The notes beneath the pieces are model-generated. The model saw only the letters and a list, made by a program, of their open reading frames with translations. It had not been told where the DNA came from and searched no databases. From a virus (lineage: Duplodnaviria; Heunggongvirae; Uroviricota; Caudoviricetes), in the IMG/VR virus record IMGVR_UViG_2671180984_000014: a stretch of 64,000 nt of DNA; one strand, written 5' to 3'. How positions within the stretch are numbered: the stretch's first letter is position 1; the number at the start of each line of letters is the position of its first letter. The translations under genes and the position numbers were made by a program. Shown here in pieces: positions 12,359-64,000 of the stretch.

Positions 12359-12490
12359 TTAATAGTCATTGATCGCAAAGGCGTAAACGTGCCCAAGGTA
12401 TTTCGTATAATCGGTACAAATCTCCTTCACGCTTGATGCTGCATTAACAGTCCCGGCCATAAATAATAACGGTAGTAATAGTTTTCTCAT
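12359..12490 (-). CDS. 43-aa secreted peptide (MRKLLLPLLFMAGTVNAASS...)
   Basis: Below the 60-aa track cutoff; ATG with GGTGAGG SD upstream; signal-peptide-like N-terminus. Confidence 0.35.
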   Translation of the reverse strand: MRKLLLPLLFMAGTVNAASSVKEICTDYTKYLGHVYAFAINDY

Positions 12491-12586
12491 TATAACCTCA
12501 CCTGCCTTATAACTCATTTAGGGTACATATTTTCGCCTTTAAAAAAAAGAGGTTATTAGATCCAATTGTGCATTTATTAAACAAGC

Positions 12587-12603
12587 AATGCTCTAATAAA
12601 TTT
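12587..12603 (+). promoter_or_regulatory. C1-type operator (AATGCTCTAATAAATTT) at the immI promoter
   Basis: 16/17 match to ATTGCTCTAATAAATTT upstream of c4-icd-ant. Confidence 0.7.
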
Positions 12604-12739
12604 GTATTTTTAAGTCGCGAATGCTATCTTTTCGCATCATATTGACCTTTTAATCGTTCAGGCTTATAGTTCCGCCGTCGTAGCAAATTCTGCGACCGGG
12701 TTTAGCAGCCTGAATACTTACGCGGACAACCGCAGATTT

Positions 12740-12840
12740 CCGATATTGCGGTATTTTTGTGTCCGTAAACCACGTTACGCCCGAATTATGGTGGGGCGTG
12801 ATGGGGAGGCTTCGGCCTGCTGGTTTCGTAAGTGCCAGTC
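12740..12840 (+). ncRNA. c4: c4-type antisense immunity RNA (approximate bounds)
   Basis: Non-coding stretch between operator and icd containing block TTATGGTGGGGCGTGATGGGGAGGCTTCGGCCTGCTGGTTTCG, conserved in a second copy at 63759-63802; upstream hairpin plus T-run at 12730-12757. Confidence 0.35.
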
Positions 12841-12915
12841 TGCTAACCCCGTCACGTCCTGCCACCTGTTTAGCAGCGGGTCGCAGGTTGTTTATCAACT
12901 TACGAGGCCGTAACT

Positions 12916-13137
12916 ATGGTTAATGCCAATCCTTGCGCACGCCAAGAATTCATCTGGCGTTTCTATTCCTGTAAAAAACACCACTATCACTTCGTTATCG
13001 CTGCAACAGAAGACGAAGCACGCTCTCAATTGCCTGATGGCCCCTGCATTTTTACTGCCCGTTTTTCAACTAACTCGCGCAATTCACTTAGTTACTGGAG
13101 CCTCCCCTTCTCTGCCGACGTTCAGGGGGGTTTATGA
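12916..13137 (+). CDS. icd: Icd, 73-aa cell-division inhibitor of the immI operon
   Basis: 73 aa; stop overlaps ant start (ATGA); motif EFIWRFYSCKKHHYHFVIAATEDE. Confidence 0.75.
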   Translation: MVNANPCARQEFIWRFYSCKKHHYHFVIAATEDEARSQLPDGPCIFTARFSTNSRNSLSYWSLPFSADVQGGL

Positions 13138-14180
13138 AAAAACCTCTCGTCACCCGTAATGACATAGCCGAAGCGATCGCCCTGCATACTGCCTGTATGC
13201 CGACACGGGAGATCCCCGGCGCAATTGCTAACTATTTCATGATAACCAGGCGTTTTTATACCCGAACAGATAAGGCTGTGATCAACAGGCTACTGATAGC
13301 CGAGATCAGGGATTATTTGATTGAACAAGGACGTCTACGTTACGCAACAGTGGCAGCAGAAATGAGAAAGGAGGCACATAGAATGACCGGTAATAATTTG
13401 AATGTTGAAAAACCAGCACCTGTTACGTCAGCTACGCCAGCACCAGCCGTGAATATTATCCCCAACACCGGAGACACAATCGACAGCCTGACACTGTTAA
13501 AGATGGTCAATGAGGCACGGAAATTATGTAGCGAAAAACCAGTTCGCAACAATGATTTCATTGCCAGAGTTAAGGATGAGCTTGATGGGGAGGGTTACGA
13601 AATCTTCGTAACCCCTATGGATAAGAAAAAAGGTGGAGCGGATCAGGTAGTTATAGTAATGACATACAAACAAGCCCTGCGCGTTGCTGCTCGCGAATCG
13701 AAAGCGGTCCGCCGTTCGCTGATCGACAAACTGGAAGAATTGCAGCAGGCAAACTCCCCTACCCCATCGATCCCCCAAACATTACCAGAAGCTCTACGCC
13801 TGGCTGCCGAGTTGGCAGAACAGAAAATGCAGTTGGAACAACAGCTGGTGGCCGCAGCCCCTAAAGTCGATTTTGCCGACCGGGTATCAGCGGCTAATGG
13901 AATCCTGATCGGGAACTTTGCAAAGGTCGTTGGACTTAAGCAAAACGCCCTTTTCTCATGGTTGCGCCAGAACGGCATTCTCATGGCTTTTGGTGCGCGC
14001 AAAAACGTACCGCGCCAGCAGTACATTAACGCCGGGTATTTCACGGTGAAAGAAGTGGTGCTGGATGATGAAAATGGCTACCAGATACGGCTGACGCCCC
14101 AATTAACGGGTAAAGGCCAGCAGTGGTTAACTCGCAAGCTACTTGATGCTGGTTTGTTAAAACCAGTAGCAATAGGTTAA
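13134..14180 (+). CDS. ant1: antirepressor Ant1 (348 aa)
   Basis: C-terminal Ant/KilA-C domain (LPEALRLAAELAEQK...GKGQQWL) paralogous to the KilA C-terminus; coupled to icd. Confidence 0.75.
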   Translation: MKKPLVTRNDIAEAIALHTACMPTREIPGAIANYFMITRRFYTRTDKAVINRLLIAEIRDYLIEQGRLRYATVAAEMRKEAHRMTGNNLNVEKPAPVTSATPAPAVNIIPNTGDTIDSLTLLKMVNEARKLCSEKPVRNNDFIARVKDELDGEGYEIFVTPMDKKKGGADQVVIVMTYKQALRVAARESKAVRRSLIDKLEELQQANSPTPSIPQTLPEALRLAAELAEQKMQLEQQLVAAAPKVDFADRVSAANGILIGNFAKVVGLKQNALFSWLRQNGILMAFGARKNVPRQQYINAGYFTVKEVVLDDENGYQIRLTPQLTGKGQQWLTRKLLDAGLLKPVAIG

Positions 14181-14257: not shown

Positions 14258-14275
14258 ATTTGCTCTAATAAATTT
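14258..14275 (+). promoter_or_regulatory. C1-type operator upstream of kilA-repL
   Basis: TTTGCTCTAATAAATTT. Confidence 0.7.
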
Positions 14276-14344: not shown

Positions 14345-15145
14345 ATGCAACAAACATTCAATGCGGATATGAATATATCAAACCTTCATCAAAATGTCGA
14401 TCCTTCAACCACTCTGCCCGTTATTTGTGGTGTTGAAATTACGACCGACCGCGCTGGCCGTTACAACCTTAATGCTCTACACAGAGCGAGCGGACTCGGT
14501 GCCCATAAAGCGCCAGCTCAATGGCTAAGAACGCTGTCAGCTAAACAGCTCATCGAAGAGCTTGAAAAAGAAACTATGCAGAATTGCATAGTTTCGTTCG
14601 AAGGCCGTGGCGGCGGCACTTTTGCCCATGAATTGCTCGCAGTGGAGTACGCTGGTTGGATTTCTCCTGCGTTTCGGCTGAAGGTAAACCAGACATTTAT
14701 CGACTATCGAGCTGGAAGATTACAACCTGCTATTCCGCAGAGTCTCCCAGAAGCTCTCCGTTTGGCTGCCGACCTGGCAGAGCAAAAGCAACGGCTGGAG
14801 CAAAAAATGCTGATGGATGCACCTAAAGTCGAATTCGCCGAACGCGTTGCTACCGCCAGCGGGGTTCTAATCGGCAACTATGCCAAAGTGCTCGGCCTGG
14901 GCCAAAACTATCTCTTCACCTGGTTGCGTGATAACGGAATTCTGATCGCAACCGGTGAACGCAGGAACGTCCCCAAACAAGAATACATATCCCGTGGGTA
15001 TTTCACCCTTAAAGAAACCGTGATCGATACAAGCAATGGAAGCAGGATTTCTTTCACGACTCGTATAACCGGCAAAGGTCAGCAGTGGCTGATGAAGCGA
15101 TTGCTTGATGCTGGTGTGCTGGTACCTGTCGCGGCAGCGCGCTAA
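14345..15145 (+). CDS. kilA: KilA (266 aa; KilA-N plus Ant-type C-terminal domain)
   Basis: N-terminal KilA-N-like region; C-terminus paralogous to Ant1; size matches P1 KilA. Confidence 0.75.
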   Translation: MQQTFNADMNISNLHQNVDPSTTLPVICGVEITTDRAGRYNLNALHRASGLGAHKAPAQWLRTLSAKQLIEELEKETMQNCIVSFEGRGGGTFAHELLAVEYAGWISPAFRLKVNQTFIDYRAGRLQPAIPQSLPEALRLAADLAEQKQRLEQKMLMDAPKVEFAERVATASGVLIGNYAKVLGLGQNYLFTWLRDNGILIATGERRNVPKQEYISRGYFTLKETVIDTSNGSRISFTTRITGKGQQWLMKRLLDAGVLVPVAAAR

Positions 15146-16316: not shown

Positions 16317-16439
16317 TACAATCGTTGCGGGTGCTTGAGGCTATCTGCTTCAGGCATTACCCGAAAAGCAGATAGAAGAAAGCCCCAGATAACATTACGC
16401 GTCCTGCAAGACGCTTAACATTAATCTGAGGCCACATCT

Positions 16440-16646
16440 ATGCTTAGCATACGTAGATTAGCCTCTTACCGACCAAAAGGTCAAGGAGAAGCAGGCTATG
16501 AAGCAGCAAAAAGCGATGTTAATCGCTCTGATCGTCATCTGTTTAACCGTCATTGTGACGGCACTGGTAACGAGGAAAGACCTCTGCGAGGTACGAATCC
16601 GAACCGGCCAGACGGAGGTCACTGTCTTCACAGCCTACGAATCTGA
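16440..16646 (+). CDS. mok: mok-like overlapping reading frame of the hok locus
   Basis: 68-codon frame starting upstream of hok and overlapping it in another frame, the classical mok arrangement. Confidence 0.45.
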   Translation: MLSIRRLASYRPKGQGEAGYEAAKSDVNRSDRHLFNRHCDGTGNEERPLRGTNPNRPDGGHCLHSLRI

Positions 16647-33400: not shown

Positions 33401-33490
33401 AGAGTGGAACCTCTTTTTGCCAGACGTTCTGTGTCTTGTAAGGGGGACACTCGAGGTGTAGCTCATGACGTTTTGGGTATATTGCTCTAA
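30449..33490 (+). CDS. dmt: bifunctional DNA methyltransferase: N-terminal C5-cytosine MTase (intein-interrupted) fused to C-terminal Dam-like N6-adenine MTase
   Basis: GTG start overlapping hrdC stop; C5 motifs GGTP|[22 protein letters not shown]; Dam motifs KWAGGK and DPPY. Confidence 0.8.
30680..31702 (+). other. intein (341 aa) with LAGLIDADG homing-endonuclease core inside dmt
   Basis: Begins Cys ([20 protein letters not shown]), block [19 protein letters not shown] and [10 protein letters not shown], ends [21 protein letters not shown] followed by Cys+1. Confidence 0.8.
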
Positions 33491-33497
33491 TAAATTT
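33481..33497 (+). promoter_or_regulatory. C1-type operator, exact consensus ATTGCTCTAATAAATTT
   Basis: 17/17; precedes the tRNA/ban operon. Confidence 0.75.
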
Positions 33498-34162
33498 ATT
33501 AGTGTAATATTACCTCAATGAATCGTGATTTATAGAGCGATTTAGCTGTTAGCCGCGACAGGCGCGGCGGTAAGCATGGCTGGGCCTAGTCCTCCCAGAC
33601 AAACCACCGAGTTGCCAGGTTGACCATGCGCCTAAGTGGCAACGCCGAAGTGCGTTACGAGCGTCCAGTTTGCCCATCTTCGGGTGGGCGTTTTTTTCAG
33701 GGTTTTCGTCATGGTTAGCGACTTTGCGGCGGTTTAGAAACTGACCATTAAAGTAAATGCAAACGATGATCTGATGATGGTAGCGGCCTAAGAAGCCAGA
33801 TGCCATGGGGTATGAGTCGTCCCCCGTCAAAAAATCGACCGCAGAGTGTCCCCGTCTGTGTATTAGGGAACGGGGAGGCACAACAGGTAAGGGCGCTGGT
33901 GTGATTAACCAGATGAACGAGAAGGGGCCATCTGTTGGTCAGCGTCCTTTCCTGTTGCGTTTTCTTTTCAGCGTAACAGCGGTGCTTAACAGCACTTTGG
34001 GTACAGTTCCACGAATTTACGGGTATATCCCGTCATGCTGAAGGCGCTAATCACGCTGGAAGCCAGGGTTATGCATCCCCTGTTACCGAATTGCAGCCAG
34101 GGCGCGGTGCGCCGAAAAGCATACGGAGGTGGAAGCCCTCGCCGGAGACGTACCCGGCAAGT

Positions 34163-34237
34163 GATGGTGTAGCTCAGCGGTAGAGCAGTTGGCTGTTAAC
34201 CAACTGGTCGGTAGTTCGAATCCACCCACCATCGCCA
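34163..34237 (+). tRNA. tRNA-Asn (anticodon GTT)
   Basis: Acceptor GATGGTG/CACCATC, anticodon loop CTGTTAA, T-loop TTCGAAT, 3' GCCA. Confidence 0.8.
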
Positions 34238-34242
34238 CTTTA

Positions 34243-34328
34243 GGGGAGTTAGTCCGTAGGGGTAGCGGGGTAGACTGTAAATCTACTGTCATTGCGACTC
34301 GGGTGGTTCGACTCCATCACTCCCCACC
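34243..34328 (+). tRNA. tRNA-like element, anticodon loop CTGTAAA (GUA, Tyr-like) with long variable arm and irregular D-arm
   Basis: Acceptor GGGGAGT/ACTCCCC, perfect anticodon stem GTAGA/TCTAC, T-arm GGTGGTTCGACTCCATC, ACCA end; D-arm does not fold canonically. Confidence 0.4.
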
Positions 34329-34333
34329 ACATT

Positions 34334-34409
34334 GCCGATTTAGCTCAGTTGGTAGAGCAGTCGCTTTGTAAGCGAATGGTCAGCGGTTCGATCCCGTTAA
34401 TCGGCACCA
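34334..34409 (+). tRNA. tRNA-Thr (anticodon TGT)
   Basis: Acceptor GCCGATT/AATCGGC, D-arm GCTCAGTTGGTAGAGC, anticodon loop TTTGTAA, T-loop TTCGATC, CCA. Confidence 0.8.
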
Positions 34410-36354: not shown

Positions 36355-36430
36355 GGCCCTTTAGCTCAGTGGTTAGAGCTGGCGACTCATAATCGCACGG
36401 TCACCGGTTCAAGTCCGGTAGGGGCCACCA
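36355..36430 (+). tRNA. tRNA-Ile2 type (anticodon CAT; could be read as Met without lysidine)
   Basis: Near-identical in architecture to E. coli ileX: acceptor GGCCCTT/AGGGGCC, anticodon loop CTCATAA, T-loop TTCAAGT, CCA. Confidence 0.8.
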
Positions 36431-60882: not shown

Positions 60883-62076
60883 GTGACCTGGGACGATCAC
60901 AAGAAGAATTTTGCTCGCCTGGCGCGAGATGGTGGTTACACCATCGCACAGTATGCCGCCGAGTTTAATCTTAACCCTAATACTGCACGTCGTTATCTCC
61001 GTGCCTTCAAAGAAGACACCAGGACAGCGGACAGCCGCAAGCCAAATAAGCCAGTCAGGAAGCCACTAAAAAGCATGATCATTGATCACTCTAATGATCA
61101 ACATGCAGGTAATCACATTGCGGCTGAAATAGCGGAAAAACAAAGGGTTAATGCCGTTGTCAGTGCCGCAGTCGAGAATGCGAAGCGCCAAAATAAGCGC
61201 ATAAATGATCGTTCTGATGATCATGACGTGATCACCCGCGCCCACCGGACCTTACGTGATCGCCTGGAACGCGACACCCTGGATGATGATGGTGAACGCT
61301 TTGAATTCGAAGCTGGCGATTACCTGATAGATAACGTTGAAGCGCGGAAGGCCGCGCGCGCTATGTTGCGTCGGTCCGGGGCCGATGTTCTGGAAACCAC
61401 TCTTCTGGAAAAGTCTCTTTCTCATCTCCTTATGCTGGAGAACGCCAGGGATACGTGTATTCGTCTGGTGCAGGAAATGCGCGATCAGCAAAAAGACGAT
61501 GATGAAGGGACTCCGCCTGAATATCGTATCGCGAGCATGCTAAACAGCTGTTCCGCGCAGATAAGCAGCCTGATCAACACCATTTACAGCATCCGGAATA
61601 ACTATCGAAAAGAAAGCCGGGAGGCGGAAAAGCACGCTTTATCTATGGGGCAAGCTGGCATTGTTAAGCTGGCATACGAACGAAAGCGTGAAAATAACTG
61701 GTCAGTGCTGGAAGCAGCTGAATTCATCGAGGCGCATGGCGGGAAAGTGCCGCCCCTGATGCTGGAGCAAATCAAAGCCGATCTGCGTGCTCCTAAGACC
61801 AATACCGATGATGAGGAAAGGCAAACAGCCGTCGGTGGCCCTTCTCTTGAAGATCTGGACAAAGTTGCGCGAGAACGGGCCGCCAACCGCCGCGCGGATG
61901 CCGCATTGTGGATTGAGCAGCGTAGGGAAGAAATCGCCGATATCGTTGATACAGGCGGTTATGGAGATGTTGATACTGAAGGTGCATCAAACGACCCATG
62001 GCTGGAACAAGACCTGGACGAAGACGAGGAGGAAGACGAAGAAGTTACCCGCAAGCTATACGGGGATGATGATTAA
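60883..62076 (+). CDS. pacA: terminase small subunit PacA (pac recognition)
   Basis: GTG start behind SD AAGGAAG; contains the pac hexamer clusters; acidic C-terminus. Confidence 0.8.
61076..61262. other. pac: pac packaging site: seven TGATC(A/G) hexamers in two clusters
   Basis: Hexamers at 61076, 61083, 61095 and 61206, 61218, 61229, 61257 inside pacA. Confidence 0.75.
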
Positions 62077-63560
62077 TGGCCAGAAGTTGCGTAACGGATC
62101 CACGTTGGCGCGAGCTGGTGGCGCTATATCGTTATGACTGGATTGCGGCCGCTGATGTTTTGTTCGGCAAAACACCTACCTGGCAGCAGGATCTGATTAT
62201 TGAGTCTGTGCAGGAACAGGGTAGCAAGACATCTGTTTCGTCTGGTCACGGTACCGGGAAATCAGACATGACTTCTATCATGATCATGTTGTTCATAATC
62301 ATGTATCCCGGTGCCCGAGCCATTATCGTTGCGAACAAAATTCAGCAGGTAATGACCGGTATATTCAAGTACATCAAGATAAACTGGGCTACTGCCACCA
62401 GCCGTTTCCCATGGCTTGCTGATTATTTTGTTCTGACAGAAACCGCTTTCTATGAGGTTACTGGTAAAGGTGTATGGACTGTAGTACCGAAGGGCTTTCG
62501 TCTGGGAAGTGAAGAAGCTCTCGCCGGTGAACACGCAGATCATCTTCTGTATATTATCGATGAAGCCTCCGGTGTCAGTGATAGAGCTTTCGGTATCATC
62601 ACCGGTGCTCTTACCGGACAGGATAACCGCATCTTATTACTGTCACAGCCTACACGCCCAAGCGGCTATTTCTACGATACTCACCATAAACTGGCCAAGC
62701 GTCCTGGTAACCCTGATGGCGTTTATACGGCGATCACGCTTAACAGTGAGGAATCACCGCTGGTAACGCCAGCATTTATCAAAATGAAGCTGGCGGAGTA
62801 CGGCGGGCGCGATAACCCTATGTACATGATTAAGGTACGCGGCCTATTCCCTAAATCACAGGATGGCTTCCTTCTTGGACGTGATGAGGTTGAACGTGCA
62901 ACGCGGCGGAAAGTCAAGATTGCAAAAGGATGGGGCTGGCTTGCATGTGTGGACGTTGCTGGTGGTACGGGACGGGATAAGTCCGTTATCAATATCATGA
63001 TGGTGTCCGGCCAGCGAAATAAACGCCGTGTAATCAACTATCGAATGCTGGAATACACAGACGTTACAGAAACGCAGCTTGCCGCCAAAATTTTCGCAGA
63101 ATGTAATCCTGAGCGATTCCCAAATATCACCATAGCGATAGACGGCGATGGCCTGGGTAAAGCAACGGCGGATCTGATGTACGAGTATTATGGTATTACC
63201 GTACAGCGTATACGCTGGGGTAAAAAGATGCATAGCCGTGAAGATAAGAGCCTGTACTTTGATAAACGTGCTTATGCCAACGTTCAAGCCGCAGAGGCCG
63301 TAAAATCTGGTCGTATGAGACTGGATAAGGGTAATGAAACTATTGAGGAAGCGTCGAAAATCCCTGTAGGGATTAACTCCGCAGGTCAATGGAAAGTGAT
63401 GAGTAAGGAGGATATGAAGAAAAAACTCAACCTGCACTCACCAGACCATTGGGATACATATTGTTTCGCTATGCTGGCTGATTATGTTCCCCAGGATGAA
63501 GTGCTTAGCGTCGAAGACGAAGCGCAGGTTGATGAAGCTCTGGCATGGCTTAATGAATGA
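62076..63560 (+). CDS. pacB: terminase large subunit PacB
   Basis: Start overlaps pacA stop (TAATG); ATPase/nuclease terminase layout. Confidence 0.8.
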
Positions 63561-63563
63561 ATA

Positions 63564-63580
63564 TTTGCTCTAATAAATTG
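63564..63580 (+). promoter_or_regulatory. C1-type operator (TTTGCTCTAATAAATTG) after pacB
   Basis: 15/17 match. Confidence 0.65.
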
Positions 63581-63699
63581 TGTTTTTTAGCTACCGATGT
63601 TACATTGAACCTGACCTCTTGCGCCTTGAGGCATTTTCGGTTTATGCTTATCAGGCACCTCATTAAAACGGGTGCCGGGATTGGCCTCCCGCTTAAGTC

Positions 63700-63815
63700 T
63701 AAGGCGATACAGACGCCGCTCGCGTCTTTTTTTGTATCGGCGTACACGCACACCTCTACAATGGTGGGCTGTATGGGGCTACCTTCGGGTAGGCTGGTTA
63801 CCTTGGACGCCAGTA
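63700..63815 (+). ncRNA. second c4-like antisense RNA (approximate bounds)
   Basis: Hairpin plus T-run at 63706-63731, then block CAATGGTGGGCTGTATGGGGCTACCTTCGGGTAGGCTGGTTACC homologous to 12786-12828. Confidence 0.35.
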
Positions 63816-63898
63816 AGGCCAACTCCGTACAGTCCACCGCCAGCAAGATTGGTCTCTTCTGCGGTGGTTACATACCAACGTCTAAGGAGGCTGCCAAT

Positions 63899-64000
63899 AT
63901 GGCTACTATCCCTACCCCAACTCATCCTGAATTTATCTGGCGCTTTTACTCCTGCCAAAAACGTCACTATCACTTCGTTATTGCACCAACAGAAGATGAG
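63899..64000 (+). CDS. icd-like gene, 5' part (runs off window end)
   Basis: ATG behind SD TAAGGAGG; MATIPTPTHPEFIWRFYSCQKRHYHFVIAPTEDE parallels Icd. Confidence 0.6.
   Translation, partial: MATIPTPTHPEFIWRFYSCQKRHYHFVIAPTEDE

Follow-up and report, generated by a model that had tools for sequence, protein, structure and literature searches.

A second immI-type cassette with isrK- and C4-family RNAs between pacB and c1 of a P1-like element

The DNA considered here, which we call the window, is a stretch of 64,000 nucleotides (nt) from the virus record IMGVR_UViG_2671180984_000014 (Caudoviricetes) and represents a P1-like element. At its downstream end, adjoining the terminase gene pacB, it carries a second immunity cassette of the immI type, which is real, well conserved and made of already known parts. 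We consider it highly probable that this is a functional-looking cassette inserted between pacB and c1, and hold with the same assurance that its parts follow a definite order: a C1 operator, a promoter, an IsrK-like decoy RNA (with the sites a1 and b1 and a terminator), a C4 RNA (with the segments a' and b'), a leader with the sites a2 and b2, the latter on the Shine-Dalgarno (SD) sequence, an icd-like gene and ant. The evidence that carries this view is comparative, for across 15 diverged copies the segments of C4 covary with two sites in isrK and with two sites at the ribosome-binding region of icd. Such covariation points to a working three-RNA switch, the code of which is not that of the resident immI.

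Parts of the cassette

The immI operon of P1 and P7 consists of the operator Op51, a c4 RNA with the segments a' and b', their targets a1/b1 and a2/b2, icd, and ant1/ant2. The elements of the second cassette all lie on the plus strand, downstream of the pacB stop codon at 63560:

63564-63580, plus strand: C1 operator-like site TTTGCTCTAATAAATTG, with two mismatches to ATTGCTCTAATAAATTT; putative binding site.
63619-63648, plus strand: putative sigma-70 promoter of the isrK-like RNA; -35 TTGCGC (63619-24), 18-nt spacer, -10 TATGCT (63643-48).
63655-63732, plus strand: small RNA of the isrK family (Rfam RF01394, 60.8 bits, gathering threshold 50).
63681-63687, plus strand: a1 target UUGGCCU, in the loop of isrK hairpin 2; 7/7 pairs with a'; covaries across 15 sequences.
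63697-63704, plus strand: b1 target GUCUAAGG, in the single-stranded stretch before the terminator; 8/8 pairs with b' (one G-U); covaries.
63711-63734, plus strand: intrinsic terminator of the isrK-like RNA, found by scan; stem 63711-63727, then T7.
63757-63844, plus strand: antisense RNA of the C4 family (Rfam RF01695, 75.9 bits, gathering threshold 45, model positions 1-87 of 87).
63801-63808, plus strand: b' CCUUGGAC, in the loop of C4 hairpin 2.
63816-63822, plus strand: a' AGGCCAA, in the single-stranded junction of C4.
63849-63855, plus strand: a2 target UUGGUCU, in the icd leader; 7/7 pairs (one G-U); covaries with a'.
63880-63887, plus strand: b2 target GUCUAAGG; 8/8 pairs with b'; overlaps the SD sequence AAGGAGG (63884-63890) of the icd-like gene, the whole entry spanning 63880-63890.
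63899-64000, plus strand: 5' part of the icd-like gene (34 of 73 codons), with ATG at 63899 and SD AAGGAGG at 63884-63890; runs off the window.

For the comparisons, 82 loci encoding close icd-like relatives were combined with the window and three annotated loci. These 86 loci contain 69 distinct upstream sequences, and C4 is present in all 69. The start codons of the icd-like genes were anchored on the motif EFIWRFYSC, while a scan of contigs with the 73-residue Icd gave three loci. The 15 copies mentioned above include P1-like plasmids, Shiga toxin (Stx) phages, SfV, Gifsy-1 and others, and were treated in one alignment, A3.

The isrK match spans positions 1-77 of the 77 in the model, and the predicted fold of the RNA shows a 5' hairpin, a second hairpin with a1 in its loop, a single-stranded b1 and the intrinsic terminator. 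Hairpin 1 is 95% paired in the alignment and has four covarying pairs. The terminator belongs to the Rfam isrK model itself, a GC hairpin followed by a T-run being present in all 15 aligned copies; it accounts for the hairpin with T-run that a first-pass annotation of this DNA had reported after pacB. E-values of the Rfam matches in the region range from 1e-12 to 4e-15. The related model RF03163 (c4-a1b1) aligns to the location of the isrK-like RNA, at 63642-63695, with a score below its gathering threshold (20.5 bits vs 46.7, E = 0.0074), and the a1 and b1 sites are nonetheless present and covary with C4. Alleles of the RCS47 type (RCS47-type, L033, L034 and L048 in our set of loci) have about 21 additional nt between the isrK terminator and C4, in columns 108-128 of alignment A3; the additional stretch of L033 contains the inverted repeat CGTAGC.ACAT.AGCTACG, which could form a further hairpin.

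The C4 RNA, in which a long closing stem encloses two hairpins and a single-stranded junction, outscores the C4 of the window's own immI (12784-12869, 70.8 bits); the two copies share 59 identical positions over 91 columns. Its structures were obtained with nhmmer and folding of each sequence, the MAFFT alignment of three C4 copies being out of register in the stems. The block of about 45 nt previously recognised as c4-like is thus part of a complete C4 RNA that matches the covariance model over its full length, with a conserved structure, and the span of 63700-63815 proposed for the small RNA was displaced by roughly 40-50 nt. Across the 15 copies, the internal fold of C4 is 99.3% paired and 12 of its 27 pairs have changed on both sides. 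The covariation of this fold, 0.528, compares with a mean of 0.234 in shuffled alignments, none of the 500 shuffles reaching the observed value, and with 0.116 in the best slid register.

Pairing codes and their covariation

For every allele of the C4 loop found among the 69 distinct upstream sequences, an exact complement exists upstream as well as at the ribosome-binding site. The cassettes between pacB and c1 use three b-codes and three a-codes in five combinations; in those of the immI type the numbers are five for b and two for a, and the 15 isrK-type copies together show at least six codes of each kind. Ten further diverged copies, namely those of Gifsy-1, the Stx phages P13374, VT2phi_272, Stx1_499, Stx2_14744 and Stx2_KH16-043, SfV, Salmonella 118970_sal3, Hafnia yong2 and a Klebsiella prophage, have the six sites in the same register, each with sequences of its own. 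The position of b2 is identical in 15 of the 15 copies.

The pairings of C4 with its two sets of targets were evaluated over the same alignment. For the upstream set (a1:a' and b1:b'), 97.3% of the cells are paired and 12 of the 15 pairs have changed on both sides, giving a covariation of 0.733 vs a shuffled mean of 0.190 and 0.153 in the best slid register. For the downstream set (a':a2 and b':b2) the pairing is 95.0%, again with 12 of 15 pairs changed on both sides, and the covariation is 0.679 vs 0.183 in shuffles and 0.098 in the best slid register; for either set, 0 of 500 shuffles reached the observed value. The few unpaired cells arise from alignment shifts of one or two columns in Gifsy-1, Hafnia and Klebsiella. 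All elements of the cassette are present, and both sets of pairings hold and covary. Since the upstream and downstream targets use the same nucleotides of C4, the two pairings are mutually exclusive, which is the signature of a competition switch. The energies of whole-molecule duplexes between C4 and leader, computed with RNAduplex, were set aside as uninformative, for they ignore the fold of C4 itself and are large for every combination.

The resident immI of the window has a different code, with b' CGUAAGU in the C4 loop and a' CUGCUAA in the junction, complementary to its own a1/b1 upstream and to a2/b2 at the ribosome-binding site of icd. In register, each C4 pairs with its own targets (7/7 and 8/8 in the new cassette, 7/7 and 7-8/8 in immI), whereas cross-pairing is interrupted: The new C4 matches the immI targets at 4/7 and 4/8 positions, and the C4 of immI matches the new targets at 5/7 and 6/8. 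These comparisons support a second circuit with a specificity different from that of the resident immI, as had been suggested beforehand.

The a- and b-codes are joined in 5 of the 9 possible combinations in the pacB-c1 cassettes of P1-like elements (loci L004-L085). Because the sites are interleaved on the DNA, in the order a1-b1-terminator-b'-a'-a2-b2, the change of one code needs a concerted change at three places; candidate routes to it are multiple crossovers, gene conversion and stepwise compensation.

Relationships to known immunity systems

In P1, the stop codons of pacB and c1 are only 24 nt apart, so the block between these genes constitutes an insertion of approximately 1.7 kb relative to P1. 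Consistent with this, homology of P1 and P7 to the window region ceases at the pacB stop codon, and there is no C1 operator between pacB and c1 of P1. The gene order in annotated relatives is pacB, icd-like and ant, followed by the convergent genes c1 and coi, and the insert is present also in phages RCS47, JL22 and vB_EcoM-673R5.

The cassette has the same order of parts as the immI of P1 and P7, from the C1 operator and a promoter through the upstream targets and C4 to the targets on the icd ribosome-binding site, icd and an ant that overlaps the icd stop. The operator match, already noticed in the first-pass annotation, agrees with the 17-bp consensus at 15 of 17 bases, both mismatches lying at outer positions, and is one of 11 C1 operator-like sites in the window, where 0.31 would be expected from shuffles. 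It begins 55 nt upstream of the putative -35, exactly as the operator-like site of immI (12587) begins 55 nt before a promoter-like -35 (12642). From the putative -10 to the first base of the isrK match there are 6 nt, a spacing equal to that of the Gifsy-1 isrK promoter (TTGACA-17-TATATT), and the sequence is conserved among P1-like alleles; by analogy with Gifsy-1 isrK, this would be the promoter of the RNA. An alternative promoter overlapping the operator, with the -10 TAAATT inside it and the -35 in the end of pacB, was considered too weak to claim. Further C1 operator-like sites of the window form an overlapping inverted pair at 33481/33492 (within 33481-33508) and a facing pair at 47568/47617 (within 47568-47633), and another such site, at 14259-14275, lies just upstream of the kilA-like gene (14345-15145, with KilA-N and KilAC domains).

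The strong SD sequence and ATG of the icd-like gene are as first described, and its product, which matches the NCBIfam family phage_ICD_like with 46.6 bits, is 81% identical to the Icd of the window over residues 11-73. The parallel previously drawn between the two N-termini does not extend to residues 1-10, which read MATIPTPTHP and are unlike the MVNANPCARQ of P1 Icd, homology beginning only at residue 11. Since the copies in Stx phages also begin with MAT.P, the first 10 or so codons seem to travel with the RNA leader of lambdoid type. Downstream of the icd-like gene, every related record (L001, L002, L003 and approximately 60 viral loci) has an ant-like gene, and in all related loci with a readable ant start its ATG, which lies outside the window, overlaps the icd stop (ATGA). 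Ant is intact in most loci, with 370-372 residues and the domains ORF6N and KilAC; its N-terminal 95 or so residues and its C-terminal third, including KilAC, are homologous to the Ant1 of the window, the middle domain being different.

This similarity with immI needs to be qualified in several respects. The new cassette adjoins immC, between pacB and c1, while the true immI of the window occupies 12587-14180 and is followed by kilA at 14345. Its upstream targets reside in an isrK-type RNA with an intrinsic terminator of its own, whereas scanning 12400-13000 found no such terminator in the leader of the window's immI. It also has a different a/b code and different first 10 residues of Icd, and its Ant has the ORF6N middle domain that Ant1 does not have. 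The isrK and C4 leader is approximately 80% identical to the copies in Stx phages, and the sequence comparisons indicate a mosaic, in which the isrK and C4 leader is of lambdoid type and the remainder of icd, like both ends of ant, is of P1 type. The earlier notion of a duplicated but diverged immI cassette was therefore correct as to the presence of a second cassette, not as to a plain duplication.

The closest relatives of the RNAs at the DNA level are the isrK and C4 leaders of lambdoid phages (P13374, VT2phi_272, ArgO145, SfV and 118970_sal3), with about 80% identity over 63656-63912 and a downstream open reading frame (ORF) having the same first codons. These leaders differ from the new cassette in their downstream genes, which carry the labels Rha, 'regulatory protein' or Ant and include no annotated icd, and in not being under C1.

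The most informative comparison is with the isrK-orf45-anrP locus of Gifsy-1 (PMC4825925), where isrK with its terminator is likewise followed by a C4-family RNA and by the ribosome-binding site of an antirepressor operon, with a1, b1, a', b', a2 and b2 in the same register. Searching the gap between antQ and anrP with Rfam gave isrK at 79.3 bits, C4 at 69 bits and, on top of isrK, c4-a1b1 at 48.1 bits; the published orf45 starts at an AUG in the 5' stem of C4. Numbered from the first base of isrK, a1 corresponds to U26-U32 and a' to A158-A164. The compensatory mutant pairs G28-C162 and G31-C159 described by Hershko-Shalev et al. 2016 (PMC4825925) are therefore a1:a' pairs. In the same study, IsrK supplied in trans raised the translation of anrP 139-fold, and IsrK with G28A or G31A could not (PMC4825925). 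Gifsy-1 differs in having no icd, with b2 directly on the ribosome-binding site of anrP, no C1 operator, a b' loop 4 nt shorter and a location in the lambdoid nin/Q region beside antQ, the gene of a Q-like antiterminator that is the final output of that locus, instead of pacB and c1.

A comparable arrangement is found in the immunity of phage P4, where the seqB of the processed CI RNA pairs with seqA upstream and seqC downstream on the same transcript, IsrK being considered by the Gifsy-1 authors a structural homolog of SeqA (PMC4825925). As described in the Gifsy-1 literature, CI of P4 differs in that it makes transcription of the replication operon terminate prematurely.

Part of this picture is already known: Both RNAs belong to families curated in Rfam, the proteins bear annotations as Icd-like and Ant, and earlier publications mention the insert as well as duplicate c4/icd regions. 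Calva et al. 2019 reported a second c4/icd region in a D6-like plasmid prophage (PMC6799933), which thus also has more than one c4/icd(/ant) module. Venturini et al. 2019 reported that two short hypothetical orfs and ant are inserted between pacB and c1, as in RCS47 (PMC6906374), and this insert of pTZ20_1P and RCS47 is the same cassette; in contrast to the present analysis, both papers note the genes in one sentence each, without analysis of RNA, targets or specificity. Phages of the APSE group have been reported with both isrK and c4 (PMC7313666), and a 2025 review lists IsrK and c4 as separate systems. In the searchable literature we found no description of isrK as the carrier of a1/b1, of orf45/STnc1160 as C4, or of three-way covariation with reassorting codes.

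Proposed switch, rival readings and meaning

How would such a cassette work? The direction of regulation, the processing of the RNAs, the binding of C1 and the functions of the proteins are here presumed from experiments with P1 and Gifsy-1. Processing of C4 by RNase P to some 77 nt, its repression of ant expression and the binding of Hfq by isrK are further traits of the two RNA families, which the RNAs of the window may share. Two papers that cite Citron & Schuster 1990 (PMC8198154 and PMC12197685) state that the c4-icd-ant operon of P1 is repressed by C1, full repression needing also C4 RNA at the ribosome-binding site. In the window, transcription would begin near 63655 and most transcripts would end at the terminator, producing an IsrK-like RNA of approximately 78 nt, while read-through transcripts would contain C4, acting in cis or after excision. 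The b' and a' segments of C4 would pair with b2 and a2 and hide the ribosome-binding site of icd, such that Icd would not be made; by coupling of translation and by polarity, Ant would not be made either. With its a1 and b1 sites, the IsrK-like RNA would pair with the same nucleotides of C4 and compete with the mRNA for it, so that this RNA would behave as an anti-antisense activator. Since the a/b code of the cassette is not the one used by the resident immI, cross-regulation between the two circuits would not be expected.

Several observations weigh against this switch. The putative promoter is weak by consensus and absent from the output of the promoter and terminator scan, and the operator lies about 40 nt upstream of its -35. 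The duplex energies of the segments in the single sequence are only modestly above chance, shuffled targets matching or beating the observed energy in 28 of 1000 cases for b':b2 and 287 of 1000 for a':a2, which is why the pairings were tested comparatively. The authors of the Gifsy-1 study, moreover, do not invoke a released antisense RNA but account for their data with a structural switch in cis together with an upstream ORF that is translated, and expression in their cis mutants of a1 went up instead of down, a result not predicted by a simple decoy model (PMC4825925). To these must be added the state of ant in the closest plasmids, for in all four records identical to the window over 63400-64000 the gene has the same 1-nt deletion, leading to a product of 257 residues without KilAC.

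The Gifsy-1 explanation has to be weighed first. Applied to the window, the C4 region would be the structured leader of the read-through mRNA instead of a separate antisense RNA, and an upstream ORF (orf45 or 'Ash') would be translated from AUG 63761 in the 5' stem of C4; the IsrK-like RNA would remodel the leader in trans and ribosomes would then continue into icd and ant. We regard both elements of this reading as possible, if rather doubtful. Its experimental basis in Gifsy-1 comprises a tagged orf45 product, the dependence of anrP translation on that of orf45, and the alternative structures A and B (PMC4825925). In the window the frame of AUG 63761 is open and in frame with the ATG of icd (63761-63901), as it is in 10 of the 15 isrK-type copies, the other five stopping 18-24 nt before the start or overlapping it (AUGA), and the translation of this frame matches Pfam Phage_ASH with 44.5 bits. 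Yet stops are absent from frame 1, too, in 5 of the 15 isrK-type copies, and since that frame is often open as well, the coding evidence for the frame of AUG 63761 is ambiguous. The AUGA overlap in Gifsy-1 is the published orf45; the corresponding frame in the immI of the window stops 2 nt before the start, and indels between copies keep the frame. Against this reading, the same nucleotides covary at the RNA level, in a compensatory manner, with two separate pairs of targets, a property that coding constraint does not explain. Moreover, the 2016 paper, as quoted in PMC12197685, describes the nucleotide sequence of orf45 as conserved and its amino acid sequence as variable, and it detected a stable RNA, STnc1160, over the region; the homologous C4 of P1 is a processed RNA of 77 nt according to secondary citations of Citron & Schuster 1992. 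The two models, cis switch and antisense, are not mutually exclusive.

A second alternative, to which we assign a similarly limited probability, is that the cassette is a decaying relic, no longer an antirepressor circuit due to the frameshift in ant, with the RNAs and icd being carried along or controlling only Icd. It derives from the close kinship of the window with plasmid pF1273-3 of Escherichia coli O157:H7, with which positions 61400-64000 are identical (2601/2601), the next-best locus having 13 mismatches. pF1273-3 and the three other identical records come from O157:H7 and O26 strains of the USA and Belgium. RefSeq flags ant of the pF1273-3 type as frameshifted, and other loci have independent truncations. 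The window ends before the lesion, so its ant would share this state by virtue of the identity with these plasmids, and the antirepressor output is probably crippled in its lineage. The operator, isrK, C4, both pairs of targets, the SD sequence and icd are, in contrast, all intact (icd has 73 codons in the identical plasmid L001), and 17 loci with the same RNA allele encode an intact Ant of 372 residues. Even the truncated product keeps the N-terminal region and ORF6N, and an ORF of 171 residues covering KilAC remains. Truncations of ant with RNAs and icd intact include at least two independent lesions that give 257 residues (L001 8281; L002, by another lesion, and L097-L099), besides products of 254, 80 and 60 residues elsewhere; this suggests that plasmid prophages have repeatedly lost the antirepressor domain KilAC.

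Far less credible is the view, implicit in the annotation by the NCBI pipeline PGAP, that the region encodes a protein of the 'Ash family' rather than regulatory RNAs. RefSeq places a partial coding sequence (CDS) for an 'ash family protein' at 63557-63874, and the Pfam match to PF10554 is the one of 44.5 bits given above. But this match covers the conceptual translation of 63659-63934, a stretch running from isrK and its terminator through C4 and the leader to the first codons of icd, where two Rfam models exceed their gathering thresholds on the same bases and base pairs show compensatory changes throughout; RCS47-type alleles lose the frame at codon 39 and VT2phi_272 loses it at codon 37, and PGAP itself marks the CDS, a pseudo-CDS, as incomplete. 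The Ash family may for the most part reflect the translation of a conserved RNA locus. Many deposited phage genomes have the isrK and C4 region under a long CDS, annotated as 'immunity region', 'transcriptional regulator', 'Ash family protein' or 'antirepressor Ant', that begins well upstream of the start codon linked to the SD sequence, as in SfV, sal3, Stx1_499, Hafnia yong2 and Stx2_14744 (L088, L089, L091, L092 and L094, respectively). These are probably over-extended gene calls.

Finally, chance resemblance, or the 5' end of a normal single-copy P1 gene, can be dismissed as having a negligible probability: The Rfam E-values, the excess of operators and the comparison with P1, which has nothing at this position beyond its 24-nt gap after the point where homology ends, rule it out, and nothing was found in its favour.

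The cassette is widespread. At least 80% of 63400-64000, a span including the last 161 nt of pacB, is covered in 271 plasmid records, and 63561-64000 is held at the same level by 260 of 5,426 complete E. coli genomes. Approximately 5% of these genomes thus have cassette sequence, which is mostly plasmid-borne, and many of the plasmids come from Shiga toxin-producing or multidrug-resistant strains. MOB-suite types the P1-like plasmids L001 and L097-L100 as 'IncHI1B' (PLSDB), which is unexpected, the P1 type being called IncY in the literature. Elsewhere in the window, the plus strand carries a sok antitoxin RNA at 16329-16503 (Rfam RF01794, 114.8 bits), which indicates a hok/sok-type addiction module on this P1-like element, and four tRNA genes, of which three form a cluster at 34163-34406 and the fourth lies at 36355-36427.

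In broader terms, the tripartite immunity of P1 is a textbook system that was defined on laboratory P1 and P7, and natural elements are now seen to carry a second, differently coded antirepressor circuit beside c1. The comparison also joins three literatures, since IsrK of Gifsy-1 carries a1/b1, 'orf45'/STnc1160 overlaps a C4-family RNA and the Pfam family 'Ash' matches the translation of the RNA locus; the natural compensatory alleles offer a ready set for tests of RNA-RNA specificity. As a speculation that we think improbable, though worth stating, the isrK/C4 leader might be a portable and programmable three-RNA switch with a two-part barcode, the codes of which reassort among P1-like plasmids and lambdoid prophages, serving as a sensor of kin or superinfection. 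Were this so, an incoming relative with the same barcode would titrate the resident C4, the IsrK-like decoy being diffusible, and thereby switch on Icd and Ant, and a P1-like plasmid with two orthogonal cassettes could respond to two different classes of invaders. The finding bears on the induction of phage-plasmids, on their mutual exclusion or sensing, and on plasmid stability.

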